Shown piece by piece: positions 10,315 to 32,410 of a stretch of DNA of 34,126 bases. The stretch covers positions 1-34,126 of the forward strand of contig JARFOE010000009.1 in the NCBI GenBank assembly GCA_031763465.1, given 5' to 3'. Numbering within the stretch: position 1 is the stretch's first letter; each line of letters opens with the position of its first letter. Under the pieces are notes generated by a model. It was not told the origin of the DNA. It saw only the letters and a list, made by a program, of their open reading frames with translations, and ran no database searches. Origin of the DNA: Squatina squatina (Eukaryota). The translations under genes were made by a program, and so were the position numbers.

Positions 10315-10856
10315 GCAGTCACTTATGAACTGGCTGGTGACTCAGCAGGCTGGATGACTGAGTAAATCCCTTCCCAGTCAGAACTGGTGAACGCCCTCTC
10401 CCCACTGTGAACTCGCTGGTGTCTCAGCAGGTGGATTACTGAGTGCACTCCTTCCCACCCTCAGAGCAGGTAAATGATCTCTCCCCACTGTGAACTCGCT
10501 GGTGTCTCAGCAGGCTGGATGACTGAGTGCACTCCTTCCCACCCTCAGAGCAGGTGAACGCCCTCTCCCCACTGTGAACTGGCTGGTGTCTCAGCAGGCT
10601 GGATTACTGATTGCACTCCTTCCCACCCTCAGAGCAGGTAAATGATCTCTCCCCACTGTGAACTGGCTGGTGTCTCAGCAGGCTGGATTACTGAGTGCAC
10701 TCCTTCCCACCCTCAGAGCAGGTGAACGCCCTCTCCCCACTGTGAACTCGCTGGTGTCTCAGCAGGCTGGATTACTGAGTGCACTCCTTCCCACCCTCAG
10801 AGCAGGTAAATGATCTCTCCCCACTGTGAACTGGCTGGTGTCTCAGCAGGCTGGAT
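10315..10856 (-). pseudogene. Degenerate C2H2 zinc-finger array amplified as an 84-bp tandem repeat
   Basis: Units read [19 protein letters not shown](R/P)VHSGER: the second Cys is lost and most units carry an in-frame TAA. Confidence 0.85.
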
Positions 10857-14799: not shown

Positions 14800-15727
14800 A
14801 ATGGGTCAGAGACCAGGGAGAATTGGCCATGACTGGTAATCGTGTGTTAGAGACCGGGGAGACTGAGTTAGTGACCGGGGAGAGTGAGTCACTTACCGGG
14901 GAGAGTGAGACAGAGACCAGAGAGATTGAGTCAGTGACTGTGGTGGGTGAGTCACTTACCGGGGAAAGTGAGTCAGTGACCATGAGAGTGAATCACTGAC
15001 CAGGGGGAGTGAGTCCGTGACCATGGAGAGTGAGTCCGTGACCATGGAGAGTGAGTCAGTTACCATGAAGAGTGATTCAATCATTCGGGTGAGTCAGTGA
15101 CCATGGTGAGTGAGTCAATCATTATGGAGAGTCAGTCTGTGACCGGGAAGAGTGCATCAGTTACTGAGGAGAGTGAGTCAATCACTGGGGAGAATGAGTC
15201 AGTGAAAAGTGTGAGTGAGTCAGTGACGTAAGTTCTGAATCAGGGACCAGGAAGACTGAGTAAGTGACAGGGGAGAGTGAGTCAGTGACCGGGGAGAGTG
15301 AATCAGTGACCATGGAGAGTGAGTCAGTTCTATTGGAGAGTGAGGCAATCATTCGGGAGAGTGAGTCAGTGACCATGGAGAGTGAGTCAGTGACAATGGA
15401 GAGTGAGTCAATCATTATGGACAGTGAGTCAGTGACCGGGGACAGTGAGTCAGTGACCGGGGAGAGTGAGTCCATCATTCAGGAGAGTGAGTCAGTGAAG
15501 ATGGAGATTTAGTCAGTCACCATGGAGAGTGAATCAATCATTCCAGAGAGTGAGACAGTGATCGGGGAGAGTGAGCCAGTGACCACTGAGTGTGAGTAAG
15601 TGACCATGGAGAGTGAGCCAATCATTGCAGAGAGTGAGTCAGTGACCGGGGCCAGTGAGTCAGTCACCAGTGAGTGTTTGTCAGTGACCGTGGAGAGTGA
15701 CTCAGTCATTCGGGAGAGTGAGTCAGA
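14800..15727. repeat. 21-bp minisatellite (gagagtgagtcagtgacc[ggg/atg])
   Basis: Tandem units directly visible; they produce the spurious ESESVTG / TDSLSPV ORFs. Confidence 0.92.
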
Positions 15728-16600: not shown

Positions 16601-17215
16601 AATCCAACTGATGCGGTGAATCTGGTTGAATAAAGAGATTTCACCGTTCCTTGTTCTCCAGTGACAATCAACATGAATCAGTTACACGGTAGTAGAGAGG
16701 GAGATGGAACAGAGCGANNNNNNNNNNNNNNNNNNNNNNNNNNNNNNNNNNNNNNNNNNNNNNNNNNNNNNNNNNNNNNNNNNNNNNNNNNNNNNNNNNN
16801 NNNNNNNNNNNNNNNNNCTGCACCTCCAGTGCTGACTTTTGTAAACTCCTTTTACAGGGCATTAGAAGAGGAGGATTTGCAGCTGAAAAAACTCGTACCA
16901 AACATGGTGTCAAGATTTAACACAGTCTCTCGATTCATCGGGACCTGAATATCATCGGCTTTTGAATGTGGAAGGAGACATGTTTGTCTGTTCTGTCTGT
17001 GGGAAAAGATTTCAAACATCAGTGTGACTGGAAAAGCACCGAAACACACACGAGAGTGTTCCAGTGTACTGACTGTGGAAAGAGCTGTAACCAGTTACAC
17101 AGCCTGAAAAAACATTGCACCATTCACAGTGGGGAGAAACCGTACACGTGTTGTGTGTGTGTGGACGAGGCTTCAACTGATTTCCAACTTGGAGAGGCAC
17201 AAGGACACCCACACC

Positions 17216-17818
17216 ATGGAGAAACCGTGGAAATGTGGAGACTGTGGGAAGGGATTCAATTACCCATCCCAGCTGGAAATTCATCGGCGTACTCATACCG
17301 GGGAGAAGCCGTTCACCTGCCCCGTGTGTGGGAAGGGATTCACTGAGTCATCCAGCTTCACTGTACACAAGCGAGTTCACACTGGGGAGAAGCCGTTCAG
17401 TTGCTCTCAATGCGGGAAGAGGTTCAGGCAGTCATCCAACCTCACTAAACACCAGCATGTTCACACTGGGGAGAGGCCGTTTACCTGCTCCATGTGTGGG
17501 AAGGGATTCACTTGTTCTTCACACCTCATTGAACACAAGCGAGTTCACACTGGTGAGAGACCATTCCTCTGCTCCGTGGGTGGGAAAGGGTTTGTCAAAT
17601 CATCTCATCATCAGAAACACCAGCGAACTCACACTGGAAAGAGGCCGTTCATCTGCTCTGTGTGTGGGAAGGGATTCACTGAGTCATCCTCCCTGCTCAG
17701 ACACCAGCGAGCTCACATTGGAGAGAGGCCATTCATCTGCCCTGTGTGTGGCAAGGGGTTCACTGAGTCATCCGCCCTGCAGACACACCAGCGAGCTCAC
17801 ACTGGGGAGAGGCCATTT
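17216..17818 (+). CDS. C2H2 zinc-finger protein (7 fingers visible, 3'-truncated by gap) with decayed upstream fingers at 16858-17215
   Basis: [14 protein letters not shown] start and TGEKPF linkers; finger 5 is CSVG (Cys lost). The upstream fingers are frameshifted at a (gt)n run near 17152-17163. Confidence 0.8.
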
Positions 17819-17918
17819 NNNNNNNNNNNNNNNNNNNNNNNNNNNNNNNNNNNNNNNNNNNNNNNNNNNNNNNNNNNNNNNNNNNNNNNNNNNNNNNNNN
17901 NNNNNNNNNNNNNNNNNN

Positions 17919-18650
17919 CCCACACACAGGACATTTAACTGGCTTCTCTCCCCTGTGAACCCACTGGTGTTCCACCAGGTTAGCAGACTGAGTGAATCGC
18001 CTCCCACATACAGGGCAGGTGAATGGCCTCTCCCCTGTGTGACTGCGTTGGTGTGTCCGCAGGTGGGACGAGTGCCTAAACTTCTTGCCACAGTGAGAGC
18101 ACTCGAATGGTCTCTCATCAGTGTGAACTATTGTGTGCTTCTGCAGACCAGATGAAGTACTGAATCCCTTCCCACACATGGAGCAAGTGAATGACCAACC
18201 CCCGGTGTGAATGTGCTGGTGTCTTAGTAGGTCAGATGATGCTGTGAATCCCTTCCCACACATGGAGCAGATGAACGGCCTCTTCTCAGTGTGAATTCGC
18301 TGGTGATTCAGCAGGTTCGATGATGCTTTGAATCCCTTTCCACAAACGGAGCAGGTGAACGGCCTCTCCCTAGTGTGAACTCGCTGGTGGTTCAGCAGGG
18401 TAGATGACTGAGTGAATCCCTTCCCACACACGCCACAGGTGAATGGCCTCTCCCCAGTGTGACAGCGCCGATGATTTTCCAGCTGGGACGGGGAACCAAA
18501 TCCCTTCCCACAGTCCCCACATTTACACCGTTTCTCCCTGGAGGGACTGCATTTGTGTGTTGACAGGCCAGGTGACTGGTTGAAGCCTTGTCCACACACT
18601 GAGCACGTGCATGGTATTTGCCCGTTGAGATTGGTGCTTTTTCCTTCCAT
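17919..18650 (-). CDS. C2H2 zinc-finger protein (one degenerate, seven complete and one partial finger), 3'-truncated by gap
   Basis: Open frame with repeated CxxCGKGF...HxxxHTGERPF units. Confidence 0.85.
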
Positions 18651-18997
18651 ATTCCAAATCCGATCATAGTCAGGTCCCAGTGAATCAAGTGACTCTGTCA
18701 GATCTTGACGTGATGTTTGGTTTGAATTGCACGTCTGTANNNNNNNNNNNNNNNNNNNNNNNNNNNNNNNNNNNNNNNNNNNNNNNNNNNNNNNNNNNNN
18801 NNNNNNNNNNNNNNNNNNNNNNNNNNNNNNNNNNNNNNNACAAACTGTGTTGAGATATTCAATGTGTTTCGATTTACCACAGGGAGGAGGGACAATATGT
18901 GGGACGGGGACTTAAACTTTGGATGAACAAGAGAGGAAAGAATGTTCTGAATTTCTGTCAAGTACTTACACTGATGTGTTCTGTAATCTATTTTACA

Positions 18998-19645
18998 TGG
19001 TATTCGAAGGGGAGGATTTGCAGACCCGAAAATCAAATCAAACGTGGTATCAAGGTCTGACGGAGTCATCAGGATTTCAATATCATAGCCTTTTGAAGGA
19101 GGGAGAAGAACTGTTTGTCTTTTCTGTCTGTGGGTAGAGATTTCAAACATCTGTGTGACTGGAAAAGCACGAGACACACACACCTGAGTGAGAGTGCTCC
19201 AGTGCATTGACTATGGAAAGAGCTTTTAGCAGTTACAAAGCCTGAAAAACCATCACACCATTCACTGCGGGGAGAAACTCTATACGTGTTGTGTGTGTGG
19301 ACGAGGTTTCAATCAATGGAGAGACTTAAGGACACCCGCACCACGGAGAAACCATGGAAATGTGGAGACTGTGGGAAGGGATTCATTTCTCCATCCCAGC
19401 TGGAAACTCATTGGCGCAGTCACACTGGGGAAAGGCCATTCACCTGCTTTGAGTGTGGGAAGGGATTCACTCAGTCATCCAGCCTGTTGACACACCAGCG
19501 ACTTCACACTGGGGAGAGGTCGTTCACCTGCCCTGAGTGTGGGAAAGATTTCAGTCGGTCATCCTACCTGCTGACACACCAGCGAGTTCACACTGGGGAG
19601 AGGCCATTCACCTGCTCTGAGTGTGGGAAGAGATTCGCTGAGTCA
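18998..19645 (+). pseudogene. C2H2 zinc-finger locus with disrupted 5' part; three intact fingers from about 19343
   Basis: Homologous to 16858-17818, but the acceptor reads ttttacatg instead of ttttacagg, upstream fingers carry stops and frameshifts, and the MEKPW ATG is ACG (19343). Confidence 0.65.
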
Positions 19646-20046: not shown

Positions 20047-20223
20047 CTTGAAAATGGCGGCGTCCTCGTCGTGCCTGTAGTCCTGCTTGCCTGCATGCTT
20101 CCACGGGATCCGGAACATTCCCAGCTTGCGATCCTCCCAGACCAGGCCCGGGTACTGCTCGCTGTCCACTTGCTCAATCATCCACTGCTTCAGCTTGCGG
20201 GTGCACCTCACCCGTCCTCCCAT
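20047..20223 (-). CDS. IRF9: Interferon regulatory factor 9, first coding exon (N-terminal half of the DNA-binding domain)
   Basis: cag|G ATG ... TTC AAG|gtgagc; MGGRVRCTRKLKQWMIEQVDS...FRIPWKHAGKQDYRHDEDAAIFK. The GR.RCTRKL N-terminus favours IRF9 over IRF4/IRF8. Confidence 0.88.
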
Positions 20224-20587: not shown

Positions 20588-21441
20588 CCTCCCCGTTTCT
20601 TATGTCACAGGCTGGAAAGGCAGATTGGCCACCTCCTGGTCAGATGTAACATGTCCTGGAGGCTGAATGGCCTCCTCCTGTTCCTAAGTAACAGGCCTGA
20701 GAAACTGAATGGCCTCCTCCTGGTCCTATGTAACAAGCTCGAGGCGCTGAATGGCCTCCTCCTGTTTCTATGTGACAGGCCTGAGAAACTGAATGGCATC
20801 TCCTGTACCTATTGTAACAAGCCTGAAGGGCTGAATAACCTCATCCTGTTCCTACCTAAAAGGCCCGAGGGTCTGAATGGCCTCCACCTGGTCCTATATA
20901 ACAGACTCAAGGGTTGAATAACCTCCTCCTGTTTCTATGTGACAGGCCCGAGGGGTTGAATGGCCTCCACCTGTTCCTATGAAATAAGCTTAAGGTGCTA
21001 AATGGCCTCCTTCTATTCCTGAGTAACAGGCTCAAGGCTTAATGTCCTCCTCCTGTTCATATNNNNNNNNNNTAACAGGCTCGATGGGTGGATTGGCCTC
21101 CTCCTGTTCCTATGTAACAGGTTAGAGGGGCTGAATGGCCTCCTTCTGGTCCCAGAGGCTGAATGGCCTTCTCCTGTTCCTACTGTAACAGGCCCAAGGG
21201 GGTGAATAGCCTCCTCCTGTCCCAGCTAAAAGGCCTGAGGGGCTGAATGGCCTCCTCCTGGTCCGATGTAACAACCTCGAGGGGATGAATGGCCTCCTCT
21301 TATTCCTGTGTAAAGAACTCAAGGGGTTGAATGGCCTCCTTCCATTCCTGAGTAATGGGCTCAAGACTTGATGGGCCTTCTCCCTTTCCTTTGTAGCTAT
21401 TCCAAATGGCCTAGTTCTGTTCCAATGTAACATGTTCGTGG
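20588..21441. repeat. About 42-bp minisatellite resembling the CR1 LINE 3' tail
   Basis: Unit aacaggctcgaggggctgaatggcctcctcctgttcctatgt. Confidence 0.9.
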
Positions 21442-21790
21442 NNNNNNNNNNNNNNNNNNNNNNNNNNNNNNNNNNNNNNNNNNNNNNNNNNNNNNNNNNN
21501 NNNNNNNNNNNNNNNNNNNNNNNNNNNNNNNNNNNNNNNNNCAACATTCCATTTGCAATCTCAAATCCTCTCTAAACCTCCCACCTCTTACCCTAAATCT
21601 AGGCCCCCACATTCATTGTCTGCCCACATTCACTGTTTGCTTCACACCTGAGCAATGGAAGGAGCGATTCGTTAAAAAAAACAGAAAATAAATAAGCCAC
21701 CGAACCCCAGGCTGAGAGGTGCATTTCCAAGAGCAACCACAGGATAGCCCCAGGCCCCTTTCCACCCTCCACCTCCAAGGCCGCACCCAC

Positions 21791-21978
21791 CTGCTGCTAG
21801 ATTGCCTTTGCCCCTCAGTCGTCACGTGCTCGGCCAGAGGCGGCCGGAGTGCGTTCTGATTGGCCAGCATGTCGACCTTTGCCCTGAGACACTTGCACTT
21901 GTCCTCCATGGAGTTCAGATTGGCTTCGATGGCATCGAGCCGGAGGCACAGGGTCTTGCTGGCGGAGTACAGGAGAGT
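21791..21978 (-). CDS. BANP/SMAR1-like protein, internal exon encoding the N-terminal coiled coil
   Basis: ttctgttcccttcccacag|ACT...AG|gtgggt, a 188-nt exon encoding TLLYSASKTLCLRLDAIEANLNSMEDKCKCLRAKVDMLANQ, similar to BANP FLYSINQTICLRLDSIEAKLQALEATCKSLEEKLDLVTNK as recalled. Confidence 0.75.
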
Positions 21979-22152
21979 CTGTGGGAAGGGAACAGAATGA
22001 AACAAATCAGCGCAAAAGGTAATGAAGACCGTAATCCACTGTTAAAGTGGNNNNNNNNNNNNNNNNNNNNNNNNNNNNNNNNNNNNNNNNNNNNNNNNNN
22101 NNNNNNNNNNNNNNNNNNNNNNNNNNNNNNNNNNNNNNNNNNNNNNNNNNGC

Positions 22153-24189
22153 CCCCTCCCCGGCTTGACAGGAGGCCCCATCCCTGGCCTAACAGGAGGT
22201 CCTTACCCTGGCCTGACTGGAGGTCCCATCTCCGGCCTGGGGCTAACTGGAGGCCTCATCCCCGGCCTGGGCCTAACTGGAGGTCCCATCCCCGGCCTGG
22301 GCCTAACTGGAGGCCCCATCCCTGGTTTGGGCCTAACTGGAGGCCCCATCCCCGGCCTAACTGGAGGTCCCATCCCCAGCCTAACTAGAGGTCCTATCAC
22401 TGGCGTGGGCTTCGGAGAGGGTGAGAAAGGCAAGGGGAAGCCGGACATTGTACAGATCGACCTGACTAGTGAAGACGAGGCGGGCGAGCGGACCCCAGGC
22501 CAGGAGGAGGCAGCAGACAGGCCTGGGCCTGTCCCCGAGGTATCCATACCTGCCTCCTCATCCTTGCTCAAGCAGCCTGAGCCTCCCGCTAAAACTGGCC
22601 CCCCTCGGGAGCTAGGCCCCGGCCTTGAGCTGGACACCAATGGGCCTCTGGCCGAGGCATTCAGCCACTTCCCGTACCCGAGCCCAGCCGAGTTGGCCCG
22701 CTGCGGCCTCTCGGCGGGGCTGCCGGCCGAGCGAGTGAGAGTCTGGTTCATGGTGCAGAGGCTGCGGCACGGCATCAGCTGGACACCCGAGGAAGTGCGG
22801 GAGGCCCGGGACAAGCTGTGGCGCAAGCCAGGGACTCTGAGGCTACCCGTCCCGCCACCGCTGACCCTGTTCGCCGACAACCCCCGCCGCCCGCTTGTCC
22901 TCATTCCCACGCCGGGCCGAACTGAATCCCAGGCCTTATCTGGAGCCTATGGGGACCTGGCGAGCCGAGGCCCCAGTGGCGCCAACAGGGAGGCCCGAGA
23001 GCAAGCCCCGGGGCCTGAAGGAGGTGGTGGAGGATGCCTCCTCCCCGGTAGTCCCAAGAAGGCCCGCACCTCACCCGACGGCGCCGACTCTCCTGAGGCT
23101 TGGAGCTGCCTCCCTGGGGCCCCGCCGCTGCCTGCTGAGAGACGCTGGCGGAAGACCAAGGATCAGCTTGCTGCCTTGAAGAGCAGCTTTGCCCGCGACC
23201 GCTACCCAGACGAGGCGGAGACGAGGAGGTTGCAGGCCCGGACTGGCCTGGGCAAGTCAGAGATCAAGAGGTGGTTCAGTGACAGCCGCTATCAGCTGCG
23301 CAACCTGCCCGCCTCCTACTTCCAGCTCCGCCTCGGCGGGAGCCTGGCCTGGCAGCGCAACGGTGGACCCCTGCCCCCACAACCAGAGGCTGAGGCTGGG
23401 CCTGGCCGGGAGGGAGGCCAAGAGACGGCCGGAGAGGCGCTTCACCGCTTCAGTGAGGCCACACCGGCGCCCCAGCATGAGGTGGAAGAGGGCGATTTGA
23501 ACCAAAGAAAAGCTGAGGAGGAGGAGGAGGAGGAAGAGGCCAAGGCCGCGGCCGCAAGCCTGCCTGGCAGTTCGGTTGCCACGGAGACGGTGGCCCACTG
23601 CTCTGTTGGGAGCTCAGTCACCATGGAAACGACGGCCCACCGTGCCCAAACCCCGAGCCAAGCCCCGGCCCCCTCGCCGGGCCGCCCCAGGAAAACCAAA
23701 GAGCAGCTGGCCATCTTGAAGACTTTCTTCCTGCGCTCGCAGTGGCCGAGTGGCGACGATTACACGCGGCTGGTGGAGCGGACCACGCTGGCCCGGGCCG
23801 ACATCATCCAGTGGTTCGGCGACACTCGCTACGCCCTCAAGAACGGGCAGCTCAAGTGGGTGCACCGCAGCCCCATGGCCTTCGGGGCTGGGACGGGCCT
23901 GGAGCCTGGGCCCGGGCCTAGGACGGACTGCGGGCCTCTGGAGGAGTACCTGAGTCAGCGTGGCCGCCTGCGGCAGGAAGACCTGTACCAGCTGTGTGTG
24001 GAAACGCGGATGAGTGCCCAGCAAGTGGCCGAGTGGTTCCGGCGGAGGGCCCGGCCTCTGGAGCTGGAGCTGGAAGCCGTAGTGAGCGAGGAGGGCGGCT
24101 CTGAGGACGACGGGCCGGAGGAGGAGAGCGGTGGGGCAAGTGAAAGGAAGTTAGACCACGGGGGCCACATTGTCAGAGTGATGCTTTAA
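22153..24189 (+). CDS. HOMEZ: Homeobox and leucine zipper protein Homez (ZHX family), large coding exon, 5' end in the gap
   Basis: HD1 FSHFPYPS...VWFMVQRLRHGISWTPEEV, HD2 RKTKDQL...RWFSDSRYQ, HD3 KTKEQLAILK...IIQWFGDTRYALKNGQLKW and a C-terminal PLEEY...QQVAEWF Homez-type domain. Confidence 0.88.
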   Translation, partial: PLPGLTGGPIPGLTGGPYPGLTGGPISGLGLTGGLIPGLGLTGGPIPGLGLTGGPIPGLGLTGGPIPGLTGGPIPSLTRGPITGVGFGEGEKGKGKPDIVQIDLTSEDEAGERTPGQEEAADRPGPVPEVSIPASSSLLKQPEPPAKTGPPRELGPGLELDTNGPLAEAFSHFPYPSPAELARCGLSAGLPAERVRVWFMVQRLRHGISWTPEEVREARDKLWRKPGTLRLPVPPPLTLFADNPRRPLVLIPTPGRTESQALSGAYGDLASRGPSGANREAREQAPGPEGGGGGCLLPGSPKKARTSPDGADSPEAWSCLPGAPPLPAERRWRKTKDQLAALKSSFARDRYPDEAETRRLQARTGLGKSEIKRWFSDSRYQLRNLPASYFQLRLGGSLAWQRNGGPLPPQPEAEAGPGREGGQETAGEALHRFSEATPAPQHEVEEGDLNQRKAEEEEEEEEAKAAAASLPGSSVATETVAHCSVGSSVTMETTAHRAQTPSQAPAPSPGRPRKTKEQLAILKTFFLRSQWPSGDDYTRLVERTTLARADIIQWFGDTRYALKNGQLKWVHRSPMAFGAGTGLEPGPGPRTDCGPLEEYLSQRGRLRQEDLYQLCVETRMSAQQVAEWFRRRARPLELELEAVVSEEGGSEDDGPEEESGGASERKLDHGGHIVRVML

Positions 24190-24498: not shown

Positions 24499-25230
24499 AG
24501 GAGGACAATGAGGTGGAGGAGGGTGAGGCAGAGGAGGACTAGGTGGAGGAGATGGAAGAGGCGGAGGAGAATGAGGAAGAGGAGGACGAGGATGATGATG
24601 ATGAGGAGGAGGATGAGGAAGAGGAGGTTGAGGAGGAGGATGACGTGGGGGAGAAGGATGAGGCAGAGGAGGAGGACAAGGAGGAGGATGAGGAGGAGGA
24701 TGAGGAAGAGGAGGATGAGGAGGAAGAGCAGGATGAGGAGGAGGAAGAGGAGGATGTTGAGGAGGAGGAAGAGGAGGATGAGGCAGAGGAGGAGGATGAG
24801 GCAGAGGAGGATGATGAGGAGAAGGAGGAAGACGAGGTGGAGGAGGAGGATGAGGATGAGGAGGAGGAGGCTGATGAGGAGGACGAGGTGGAGGAGGATG
24901 ATGAGGAAGAGGAGGATGATGATGAGGAGGAGGAGGAAGATGAGATGGAGGAGGAGGGGAGGAGGAGGATGAGGAAGAGGAGGATGAGGAGGAGGATGAA
25001 GAGGAGGAGGGTGAAGAGGATGAAGTGAGAAGGACAAGGCAGGGGCAGCGGGGAGGCAGAAGAGGGTGAGGAATAGGAGGAGGGGAGGAGGATGAGGTGG
25101 AGGAGGATGAGGCAGAGGAGGAGGAAGAGGAGGCGGAGGAGGATGGGGCAGAGGAGGGTGAGGAGTAGGAGGAGGAGGACGAGGCAGAGGAGGCAGACGA
25201 GGATGAGGAAGAGGAGGAGGGATGATGAAG
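24499..25230. repeat. (GAG/GAT/GAA)n purine-rich low-complexity tract
   Basis: About 730 bp of gaggag variants producing E/D, R, S, P and L homopolymeric ORFs. Confidence 0.9.
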
Positions 25231-25447: not shown

Positions 25448-27108
<1,661 letters not shown>

Positions 27109-27589: not shown

Positions 27590-28234
27590 AGTGCTCGTGG
27601 AGTCATTGAGTGTCTGAAGATCATCACCAGAGAGAAATCTCGGCGAATCGCCAAGTTTGCTTTTGACTACGCCACGAAGAAAGGTCGCTCGAAGGTCACA
27701 GCTGTGCACAAGGCCAACATCATGAAGCTGGCCGACGGCCTCTTCCTCCAGTGCTGCCGGGAGGTGGCGTCGGGCTTCCCGGAGGTCAAGTTCACCGATG
27801 TCATCGTGGACAATGCCACCATGCAGCTGGTCGTCCGGCCTGAGCAGTTCGACGCTATGCTGATGCCCAACCTGTACGGGGTGGTGATCAACAATATCTG
27901 TGCCGGCCTGGTGGGGGGCCCGGGGCTGGTGCCGGGCGCCAGCATCGGCCGCAACTGCGCCGTCTTCCAGTCGGCCATCCGCAACACGGCCGTGAGCCTG
28001 GCCAACAGGAACGTCGCCAACCCCACCGCCATGCTGCTCGCCGGCTGCCTGATGCTTGACCACCTCAAGCTGCATGACCACGCCACGGTCATCCGGAACG
28101 CCGTTATGAAGGCCATGACAGAAGAGAAGATCCACACGCCGGACATTGGAGGCTCCGCGTCCACGACCGAAGTGGTCAACTATGTCATAAGCCAAATCCA
28201 GCAAACGCTCAAGGTGCCCGTGCAAGGCCTCTAA
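27590..28234 (+). CDS. IDH3 exon: beta-like to about 27725, then intronless gamma-like sequence to the stop
   Basis: After a 101-bp intron, ttag|AGT: [33 protein letters not shown] (beta), then [38 protein letters not shown] and HTPDIGG (gamma). Confidence 0.8.
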
Positions 28235-28594: not shown

Positions 28595-29117
28595 ACTCGA
28601 TTAGACCTCAGCCTGTAACCCACTGCCAGGGATCAATAATTCAAATGTAAACGATCTAAACTCTTGATTCGACCCCAGCCTGTAACCCGCTGCCAGGGAT
28701 CCATAATTTCAATGTAAATGATCTAAATCTCTTGACTAGATCCCAGCCTGTAATCCACTGCCAGGGATCCATTATTCTGTATGTAACTATGTAAATCCCT
28801 TGATTAGATCCCAGCCTGTAACCCATGACTAGGAATCCATTATTCTATATGTAATTCCCTCGATTAGATTCCAGCCTGTAACCCACTGCCAGGGATCCAT
28901 TATTCTATATGTAAACTATGTAAATCCTTCGATTAGATCCCAGCCTGTAACCTGCTGCCAGGGATCCATTATTCTATATATAAGTAGCTCAGTCCCTCGA
29001 TTAGATCCCAGCCTGTAACCCACGACCAGGAATCCATTATTCTATATGTAAACTATATAATTCCCTCGATTAGATCCCAGCCTGTAGCCCACTGCCAGGG
29101 ATCCATTATTTTATGTA
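28595..29117. repeat. About 57-66 bp minisatellite, about 8 copies
   Basis: Unit tccctcgattagatcccagcctgtaacccactgccagggatccattattctatatgtaaac. Confidence 0.9.
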
Positions 29118-29578
29118 TGAACAACAACAACTTGTATTTATATATCGCCNNNNNNNNNNNNNNNNNNNNNNNNNNNNNNNNNNNNNNNNNNNNNNNNNNN
29201 NNNNNNNNNNNNNNNNNNNNNNNNNNNNNNNNNNNNNNNNNNNNNNNNNCAGCAAGGCCAGAAGAGGAAGAAGAGGAGGAGGAGAAGGAGAGGGCGAAAG
29301 GAAACACCGCCAGACTTTTGGGGAGCTATATCCCTAGCACCCCGGCGTGGCGGGGGAAGGTCTAAACTGAGGCACCATTGGGTGTCAGGGGTCAGTAGAA
29401 GAGACCTGACGGAGTTGCGGGCATCTCCCGTGCGGACGGACCCACCTGGGAGTCGACACGCCTGACTTGGCAATACGTCAGCAAGACTGAAGGGGGGACC
29501 ACCGACCTTTGACCCCAGGCCTCTTTCCGTGCCTACCTGACCAGTTCAGAGAATTCGGAGCCTTACATTTGCCTTTAA

Positions 29579-30037
<459 letters not shown>

Positions 30038-31239: not shown

Positions 31240-32410
<1,171 letters not shown>

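Follow-up and report, generated by a model that had tools for sequence, protein, structure and literature searches.

BANP/SMAR1 is described in the part of Ren et al. 2024 (PMC11472053) used here as an activator of essential CpG-island genes that must oligomerise to be selective for unmethylated DNA. Full-length BANP was chiefly a tetramer in that part of the study, oligomers could form through the coiled coil and also through the C-terminal region, unmethylated CGCG was selected by BANP oligomers only, and DNA was read by helix 5 of the BEN domain (PMC11472053). The RhxxhE coiled-coil motif referred to below is as given in the part of PMC5940361 used here.

The DNA analyzed here (the window) is the entire scaffold G000:C9 of Squatina squatina, 34,126 nt in length. 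It carries an exon that very likely belongs to a short, BEN-less BANP paralogue conserved over sharks and rays. Like BANP/SMAR1, the paralogue has an N-terminal motif, a basic patch, a coiled coil with RhxxhE, a pre-BEN motif, and three matching intron phases. Unlike BANP/SMAR1, it lacks the BEN domain and the Q-rich C-terminal region, measures roughly 200 rather than 535 residues, ends in a conserved motif of its own, sits on a long stem branch, and lies in a different chromosome block.

Id proteins and "microProtein" decoys retain an oligomerisation domain and are missing the DNA-binding part. The paralogue resembles these in having a shared oligomerisation surface, no DNA-binding domain, and an origin by duplication, but it comes from an unrelated family, is longer than typical microProteins, carries extra motifs, and is only predicted to bind and inhibit BANP. 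Isoform X5 of canonical BANP in the zebra shark (P0052) likewise lacks BEN while having the coiled coil and the pre-BEN motif; unlike the paralogue, it has no locus of its own but is modeled as a splice form of the canonical gene, and it retains the Q-rich tail. Since this annotated isoform skips the BEN exons, a BEN-less form may come from splicing too.

Elasmobranch models labeled "protein BANP-like" or "uncharacterized LOC" in RefSeq and UniRef (XP_051865936, XP_041036839, LOC125449019) are orthologues of the paralogue. These automatic labels were already available; for the orthologous group, the BEN loss, and the paralogon position we found no description. Among the papers listed by literature searches on BANP and its paralogues there was no account of such a gene, although subscription journals and shark-genome supplements may contain one.

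The coiled-coil exon and the canonical BANP locus

The scaffold is made up of 25 pieces of 0.4–5.8 kb, mostly separated by 100-N gaps, and it ends with the window, leaving no flanking sequence beyond 34 kb. It appears to have been ordered against a reference, so that the order of its features may be informative while distances within the window are not. Feature coordinates are provided in Table 1.

Table 1. Position, strand, and supporting observations for the BANP-like exon and neighboring genes (window coordinates)
Feature	Position	Strand	Observation
Coiled-coil exon of short BANP paralogue	21791..21978	-	188 nt = 62 codons + 2 nt; phase 0 to phase 2
Splice acceptor of BANP-like exon	21979..22001	-	Pyrimidine tract and AG; spliced join to upstream exon in relatives' contigs
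Splice donor (GT) of BANP-like exon	21785..21790	-	Contigs of 3/4 runs depart from the window at 21791
Assembly piece carrying BANP-like exon	21542..22050	.	509 bp, flanked by two 100-N gaps
IRF4/8/9-group DNA-binding exon	20047-20223	-	Sequence matches
HOMEZ main exon	22153-24186	+	Best PDB match HOMEZ; head to head with BANP-like gene
C2H2 zinc-finger gene	25449-26750	-	Sequence match
Cerebellin-type gene, first exon (presumed type)	29750-30019	+	Without Pfam match
HNRNPC-type RRM exon	31752-31991	-	Best PDB match hnRNP C, then RALY

When all six frames of the window were searched with a canonical-BANP profile, the frame of the BANP-like exon was the sole match (E 1e-10; runner-up E 1.9), and no further exon of the gene rose above noise in the window. 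In a search of longer proteins (38 candidates), the exon matched 12 database proteins at 71–92% identity (E 3.5e-29 to 8e-12), of which 10 come from named shark and ray species and 2 are Logan proteins. Its first 38 residues were identical at 31–38 positions over 10 sharks and rays. By using a full-length orthologue as query, the preceding coding exon (113 nt) was located on an unplaced contig (G000:C545970:224-336); among the best-scoring candidates, this assembly yielded neither a first nor a last exon.

Four sequencing runs from relatives (~7% diverged, presumed to be RNA) were compared with the exon. Contigs from three runs matched precisely 21791-21981 and extended both ways, the fourth covered 21825-21981, and in all four both exons were covered by a contig of matching size and depth. 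In run X1, the upstream exon (record positions 638-751) abuts the window exon (749-939), and the loose end reads across. Among the differences listed between the exon and the relatives, 5 of 6 substitutions were synonymous. The BANP-like exon was thereby confirmed as real and spliced.

The only other credible match of the exon in the genome was at G000:C16:16.769 Mb (E 0.03, with 38% identity across 37 aa). Canonical BANP exons lie at this locus, among them a BEN exon for which solved BANP structures gave a match at E 4e-45; the second exon of the canonical gene was not recovered from the assembly. Another exon on the same scaffold, at 19.99 Mb and 3.2 Mb from canonical BANP, is an IRF exon that we take to be of IRF8 type. 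The paralogue is accordingly not the main BANP gene of the species, near IRF8, which is the one on C16. In named species with both records, canonical BANP and the paralogue were on differently sized contigs in 10 of 10 cases, four of these being small scaffolds. Querying the genome with the canonical BEN exon returned that exon only (1 candidate), giving one BANP-type BEN exon, on C16. A Pfam BEN scan of the genome found two other BEN exons (G000:C13:5448888-5449049 and G000:C4:1927895-1928095), which are unrelated to the BANP-like gene; that scan overlooked the C16 BEN exon and is not a census.

The first-pass annotation of the window had described a clean exon with canonical splice sites and moderate similarity to BANP, and had proposed that it belonged to a second BANP gene. 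Each of these points was upheld, by the AG/GT borders and the splicing seen in relatives' contigs, by the 38% identity to this genome's own canonical exon, and by the canonical gene on C16.

Orthologues, architecture, and absence of the BEN domain

Orthologues of the paralogue were recovered from 16 named shark and ray species by protein search and cluster look-ups. Full-length versions have ~195–225 residues, compared with ~535 for BANP, and share a common order: an N-terminal VEIAV motif and a KRRR patch precede the coiled coil, from which a variable linker leads to a GLGPGVHIVALCAD motif and, at the end, to DATNLLYQLMY followed by the stop. The short motifs stay conserved between variable linkers. 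When the profile of the short proteins was aligned to that of canonical BANP using hhalign, 101 columns were matched (probability 99.2%, E 1.3e-19, 31% identity), which places the homology in the first 100 residues of BANP. Of 20 short-form records, 19 were matched by the canonical profile, at positions of about 2–145. The intron phases at three junctions (1, 0, and 2, partly read from relatives' contigs) are the same as in canonical BANP. The coiled coil is identical to that of shark BANP at 14 of 38 positions and keeps the BANP a/d register and the RhxxhE motif.

Among 33 short-form records, 24 terminate in LLYQLMY, three have LLYQLMY and a short tail, and six are truncated models; BEN motifs were found in none of the 33, and Pfam BEN (PF10523) was absent in 13 of 13 short-form proteins. 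The Q-rich tail was absent from the orthologues, and the paralogue has no counterpart of the DNA-reading BEN helix 5. Nine of the 24 records ending in LLYQLMY are Logan-only proteins on contigs of 0.9–3.4 kb, which likely derive from transcripts. The idea in the first-pass annotation of a BEN-domain regulator of CpG islands did not survive these results. In Squatina squatina itself, whose assembly yielded no last exon, the BEN domain is presumed lost on the strength of the relatives' orthologues.

The N-terminal motif aligned with the N-terminus of BANP at scores reached by 1–25 of 1000 shuffles in four gnathostomes, and fell short of significance in hagfish and in invertebrates. When the GLGP motif was compared with the stretch directly before BEN, its score was reached by 0 of 1000 shuffles in a ribbon worm and 15 of 1000 in a shark; the other five comparisons were not significant. 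The idea that LLYQLMY descends from a BEN helix was rejected and kept as a lead only: among 7 canonical proteins, the motif scored best on that helix in 4, yet 666–962 of 1000 shuffles scored as high.

The AlphaFold model has a confident helix at residues 60-104 (pLDDT 93–97), weaker terminal helices (the terminal motif is modeled as helix H209-217), and disordered linkers. With this low-confidence model as a whole (pTM 0.29), Foldseek returned no match; the ESM Atlas gave no match of at least 0.9, and a PDB sequence search with the paralogue gave 0 matches.

Chromosomal position and age of the duplicate

In the scaffold, the BANP-like exon sits between the IRF exon, which we take to be IRF9 from its N-terminus, and HOMEZ. 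The zinc-finger gene is presumably ZNF219, and the cerebellin-type exon is presumably CBLN3. Human BANP is near IRF8 and JPH3. For 5 of the 10 species compared, HOMEZ and paralogue records were on equal-sized contigs (Pristis, 177,569 bp; Hemiscyllium, 6,180,057 bp; Stegostoma, 16,414,262 bp; Rhinoraja, 49,537,575 bp; Narcine, 257,710,454 bp); in the remaining five, HOMEZ was on a differently sized scaffold (10–275 kb) from the paralogue. In the sawfish Pristis, the BANP-like and HOMEZ RefSeq accessions are consecutive (XP_051865936-938, then 939). Linkage to IRF9 was observed in the present scaffold only.

On the presumed ZNF219, CBLN3, IRF9, and IRF8 labels, the neighbors of the paralogue belong to paralogon 10A, whose sister from the second vertebrate genome duplication (2R) is the block with IRF8. 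In the part of Lamb 2021 used here (PMC8040251), IRF9, ZNF219, CBLN3, and HNRNPC were placed in quad 10A and IRF8, CBLN1, and JPH3 in quad 10B. The quads branch as ((A,B),(C,D)), A being the partner of B following 1R (PMC8040251), and IRF9 was assigned to 10A in the relevant part of PMC12220609 as well. BANP and HOMEZ were absent from the examined portion of the Lamb 2021 tables (PMC8040251). A cerebellin search of the genome found no copy on C16 and one unplaced copy only.

HOMEZ and the BANP-like gene are arranged head to head (21791-24186), and the 5′ end of each is lost in the gap at 22051-22150. A bidirectional promoter common to the two genes is possible, provided that the scaffold is oriented correctly. 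HOMEZ has a Gly/Pro-rich coding repeat of 24–30 bp (22151-22398), because of which its shark orthologues have been automatically named collagen-, elastin-, or spidroin-like. A minisatellite of 42-bp units occupies the two pieces that separate the IRF exon from the BANP-like one.

A HMMER search of 1.84 billion representatives returned 28 matches at E ≤ 0.001; five of them were of the short form, each from an elasmobranch. Twenty-one matches were assigned, and those not of the short form were canonical BANP (mammals, teleosts, hagfish, and invertebrates) and one repeat protein; the other seven read as canonical BANP fragments. No bony-vertebrate or chimaera orthologue of the paralogue was found in the HMMER and protein searches, in which clustering at 50% could conceal one. 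Two proteins tried as bony-fish orthologues, P0075 and P0085, were rejected as belonging to a horseshoe crab and a scorpion. A repetitive ENA protein (P0068, 638 aa) gave seven matches to the coiled-coil part of the profile (E 5.5e-9).

In a tree of 80 columns, from which Lamellibrachia, Limulus, Pristiophorus, and Coryphaenoides were omitted as partial, the paralogues formed one clade (100/99) on a long stem (1.2–1.7). A chondrichthyan BANP clade excluded the paralogue (88/92, and 94/95 without invertebrates), and the paralogue itself moved from outside hagfish to beside mammals once the invertebrates were omitted. In AU tests, the paralogue was compatible with chondrichthyan BANP (p 0.29 and 0.13), with bony-vertebrate BANP (p 0.36), and with a gnathostome clade without hagfish (p 0.36); its grouping with elasmobranch BANP alone was borderline rejected (p 0.058 and 0.042). 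Five columns are fixed and derived in all nine chondrichthyan BANPs, and the paralogue shares none of them; a sixth column that it does share is ancestral by the invertebrate rows. Over the 80 columns, the paralogue is 43% identical to tetrapod BANP and 37% to shark BANP.

On these comparisons, the duplication would very probably be older than the split between chimaeras and sharks. The position in a sister paralogon favors 2R, and the paralogue is probably a 2R ohnologue of BANP, an origin that requires extra losses since no chimaera or bony-fish orthologue was found. A different history, in which the 5′ exons of BANP were partially duplicated on the chondrichthyan stem and came to lie beside HOMEZ by chance, is rather improbable. 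Partial duplications are typically truncated, as the paralogue is, the paralogue was found in sharks and rays only, and its union with chondrichthyan BANP stands unrejected by the AU test. Such a history fits poorly with a locus in the sister paralogon block, with the lack of chondrichthyan-derived residues, with the greater identity to tetrapod BANP, and with a chondrichthyan BANP clade from which the paralogue is excluded, while an origin within elasmobranchs only is the grouping that was borderline rejected. Scarcely credible is the explanation that the exon is an orphan, left by a decaying relic or by reference-guided scaffolding. It could account for a 509-bp piece between 100-N gaps with the next exon on an unplaced contig, but the exon is intact, spliced, and conserved in relatives and the HOMEZ linkage is present in other assemblies, so that for the gene as a whole this explanation is refuted.

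The placement between IRF9 and HOMEZ given in the first-pass annotation agrees with the two flanking exons in Table 1. Its expectation of two loci was matched by canonical BANP with an IRF8-type exon on the same scaffold and by the paralogue linked to HOMEZ in other assemblies, and retention in sharks by the 16 named species. Loss in mammals, which it had also suggested, agrees with the searches in that no mammalian orthologue surfaced, although the apparent loss is wider and takes in all bony vertebrates searched. Its proposal of an ohnologue from vertebrate genome duplication gained the sister paralogon block in its favor; as to the date, the tree leaves a duplication on the chondrichthyan stem unrejected.

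Predicted role and other features of the window

Quite possibly, though at somewhat less than even weight, the paralogue takes part in BANP coiled-coil oligomers as a DNA-blind subunit and tunes their binding to CGCG, which is the simplest mechanism. The KRRR patch would serve for nuclear import, and the common coiled coil for co-assembly with BANP. Mixed oligomers with fewer BEN domains would then have reduced affinity or methylation selectivity at CGCG promoters, and the paralogue would bring its own short partner motifs to them. Binding of unmethylated CGCG by the paralogue itself would be expected to be absent without BEN. Three considerations weigh against this role: a coil so different from that of shark BANP may prefer itself, the second, C-terminal oligomerisation region of BANP could buffer a decoy, and the conserved C-terminal motif, which has no supported BANP counterpart, hints at a separate job with a partner of its own.

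These same features could be read, though we regard this as fairly unlikely, as those of a gene of the same origin that works apart from BANP, i.e., a homo-oligomeric nuclear adaptor whose coil shows VEIAV, VHIVALC, and LLYQLMY to chromatin partners. VEIAV and VHIVALC appear to resemble SUMO-interacting motifs. Such an adaptor would agree with a coil that is fixed among paralogues and diverged from shark BANP, and with motifs conserved amid variable linkers, the terminal one modeled as a helix. It has no known partner, a literature search on BANP and SUMO-interacting motifs gave nothing on such a link among the papers listed, and the heptad core, RhxxhE, and three upstream motifs are still colinear with BANP. 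That the gene encodes a full BEN-domain transcription factor binding CpG islands is most improbable. In its favor, the fragmented assembly lacks the C-terminal exons, gene models tend to be truncated where the sequence is GC-rich (as the six truncated records are), and LLYQLMY can be aligned by eye with the BEN helix LLDYLF, an alignment biased by canonical rows cut at that point. Against this, the common LLYQLMY stop recurs in records from many assemblies and in transcript-type contigs, the genome has one BANP-type BEN exon and it lies on C16, the terminal motif scored no better against BEN than shuffles did, and a helix 5 counterpart is absent.

Returning to the DNA-blind subunit, the full reading joins that role to the 2R origin: a 2R twin of BANP survived in sharks and rays as a BEN-less decoy that would set the DNA valency of BANP oligomers and thereby how sensitive CGCG CpG-island promoters are to methylation, and bony vertebrates lost it. 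Taken as a whole this reading is unlikely; if it is true, BANP is not single-copy in jawed vertebrates. The paralogue is confined to one lineage, was already annotated automatically, and has a predicted function only. As a natural protein that keeps the coil and lacks BEN, it offers a ready-made test of the N-terminal half of BANP, and it flags three short motifs on which selection has acted over the long term. A GC-rich paralogon block that is poorly assembled thus gains a gene kept by sharks and rays and seemingly lacking in bony vertebrates.

Elsewhere in the window, fragments of tandem C2H2 zinc-finger arrays with an 84-bp period lie on both strands (10326-10856 and 16966-19645), and minisatellites with units of 21, 42, and 68–69 bp were seen at 14852-15726, 20597-21355, and 28596-29118, respectively. 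A GAG/GAT-rich stretch of ~720 bp (24499-25220), which separates HOMEZ from the zinc-finger gene, can be read on the plus strand as long Glu/Asp tracts with frame changes. An Iso_dh frame on the plus strand (27590-28231; E 5e-51) has 213 codons, is intronless, and is terminated by a stop, and upstream of it the similarity seemingly carries on in a different frame. Genes for NAD-IDH subunits are normally rich in introns, and this intronless frame may therefore be a retrocopy.
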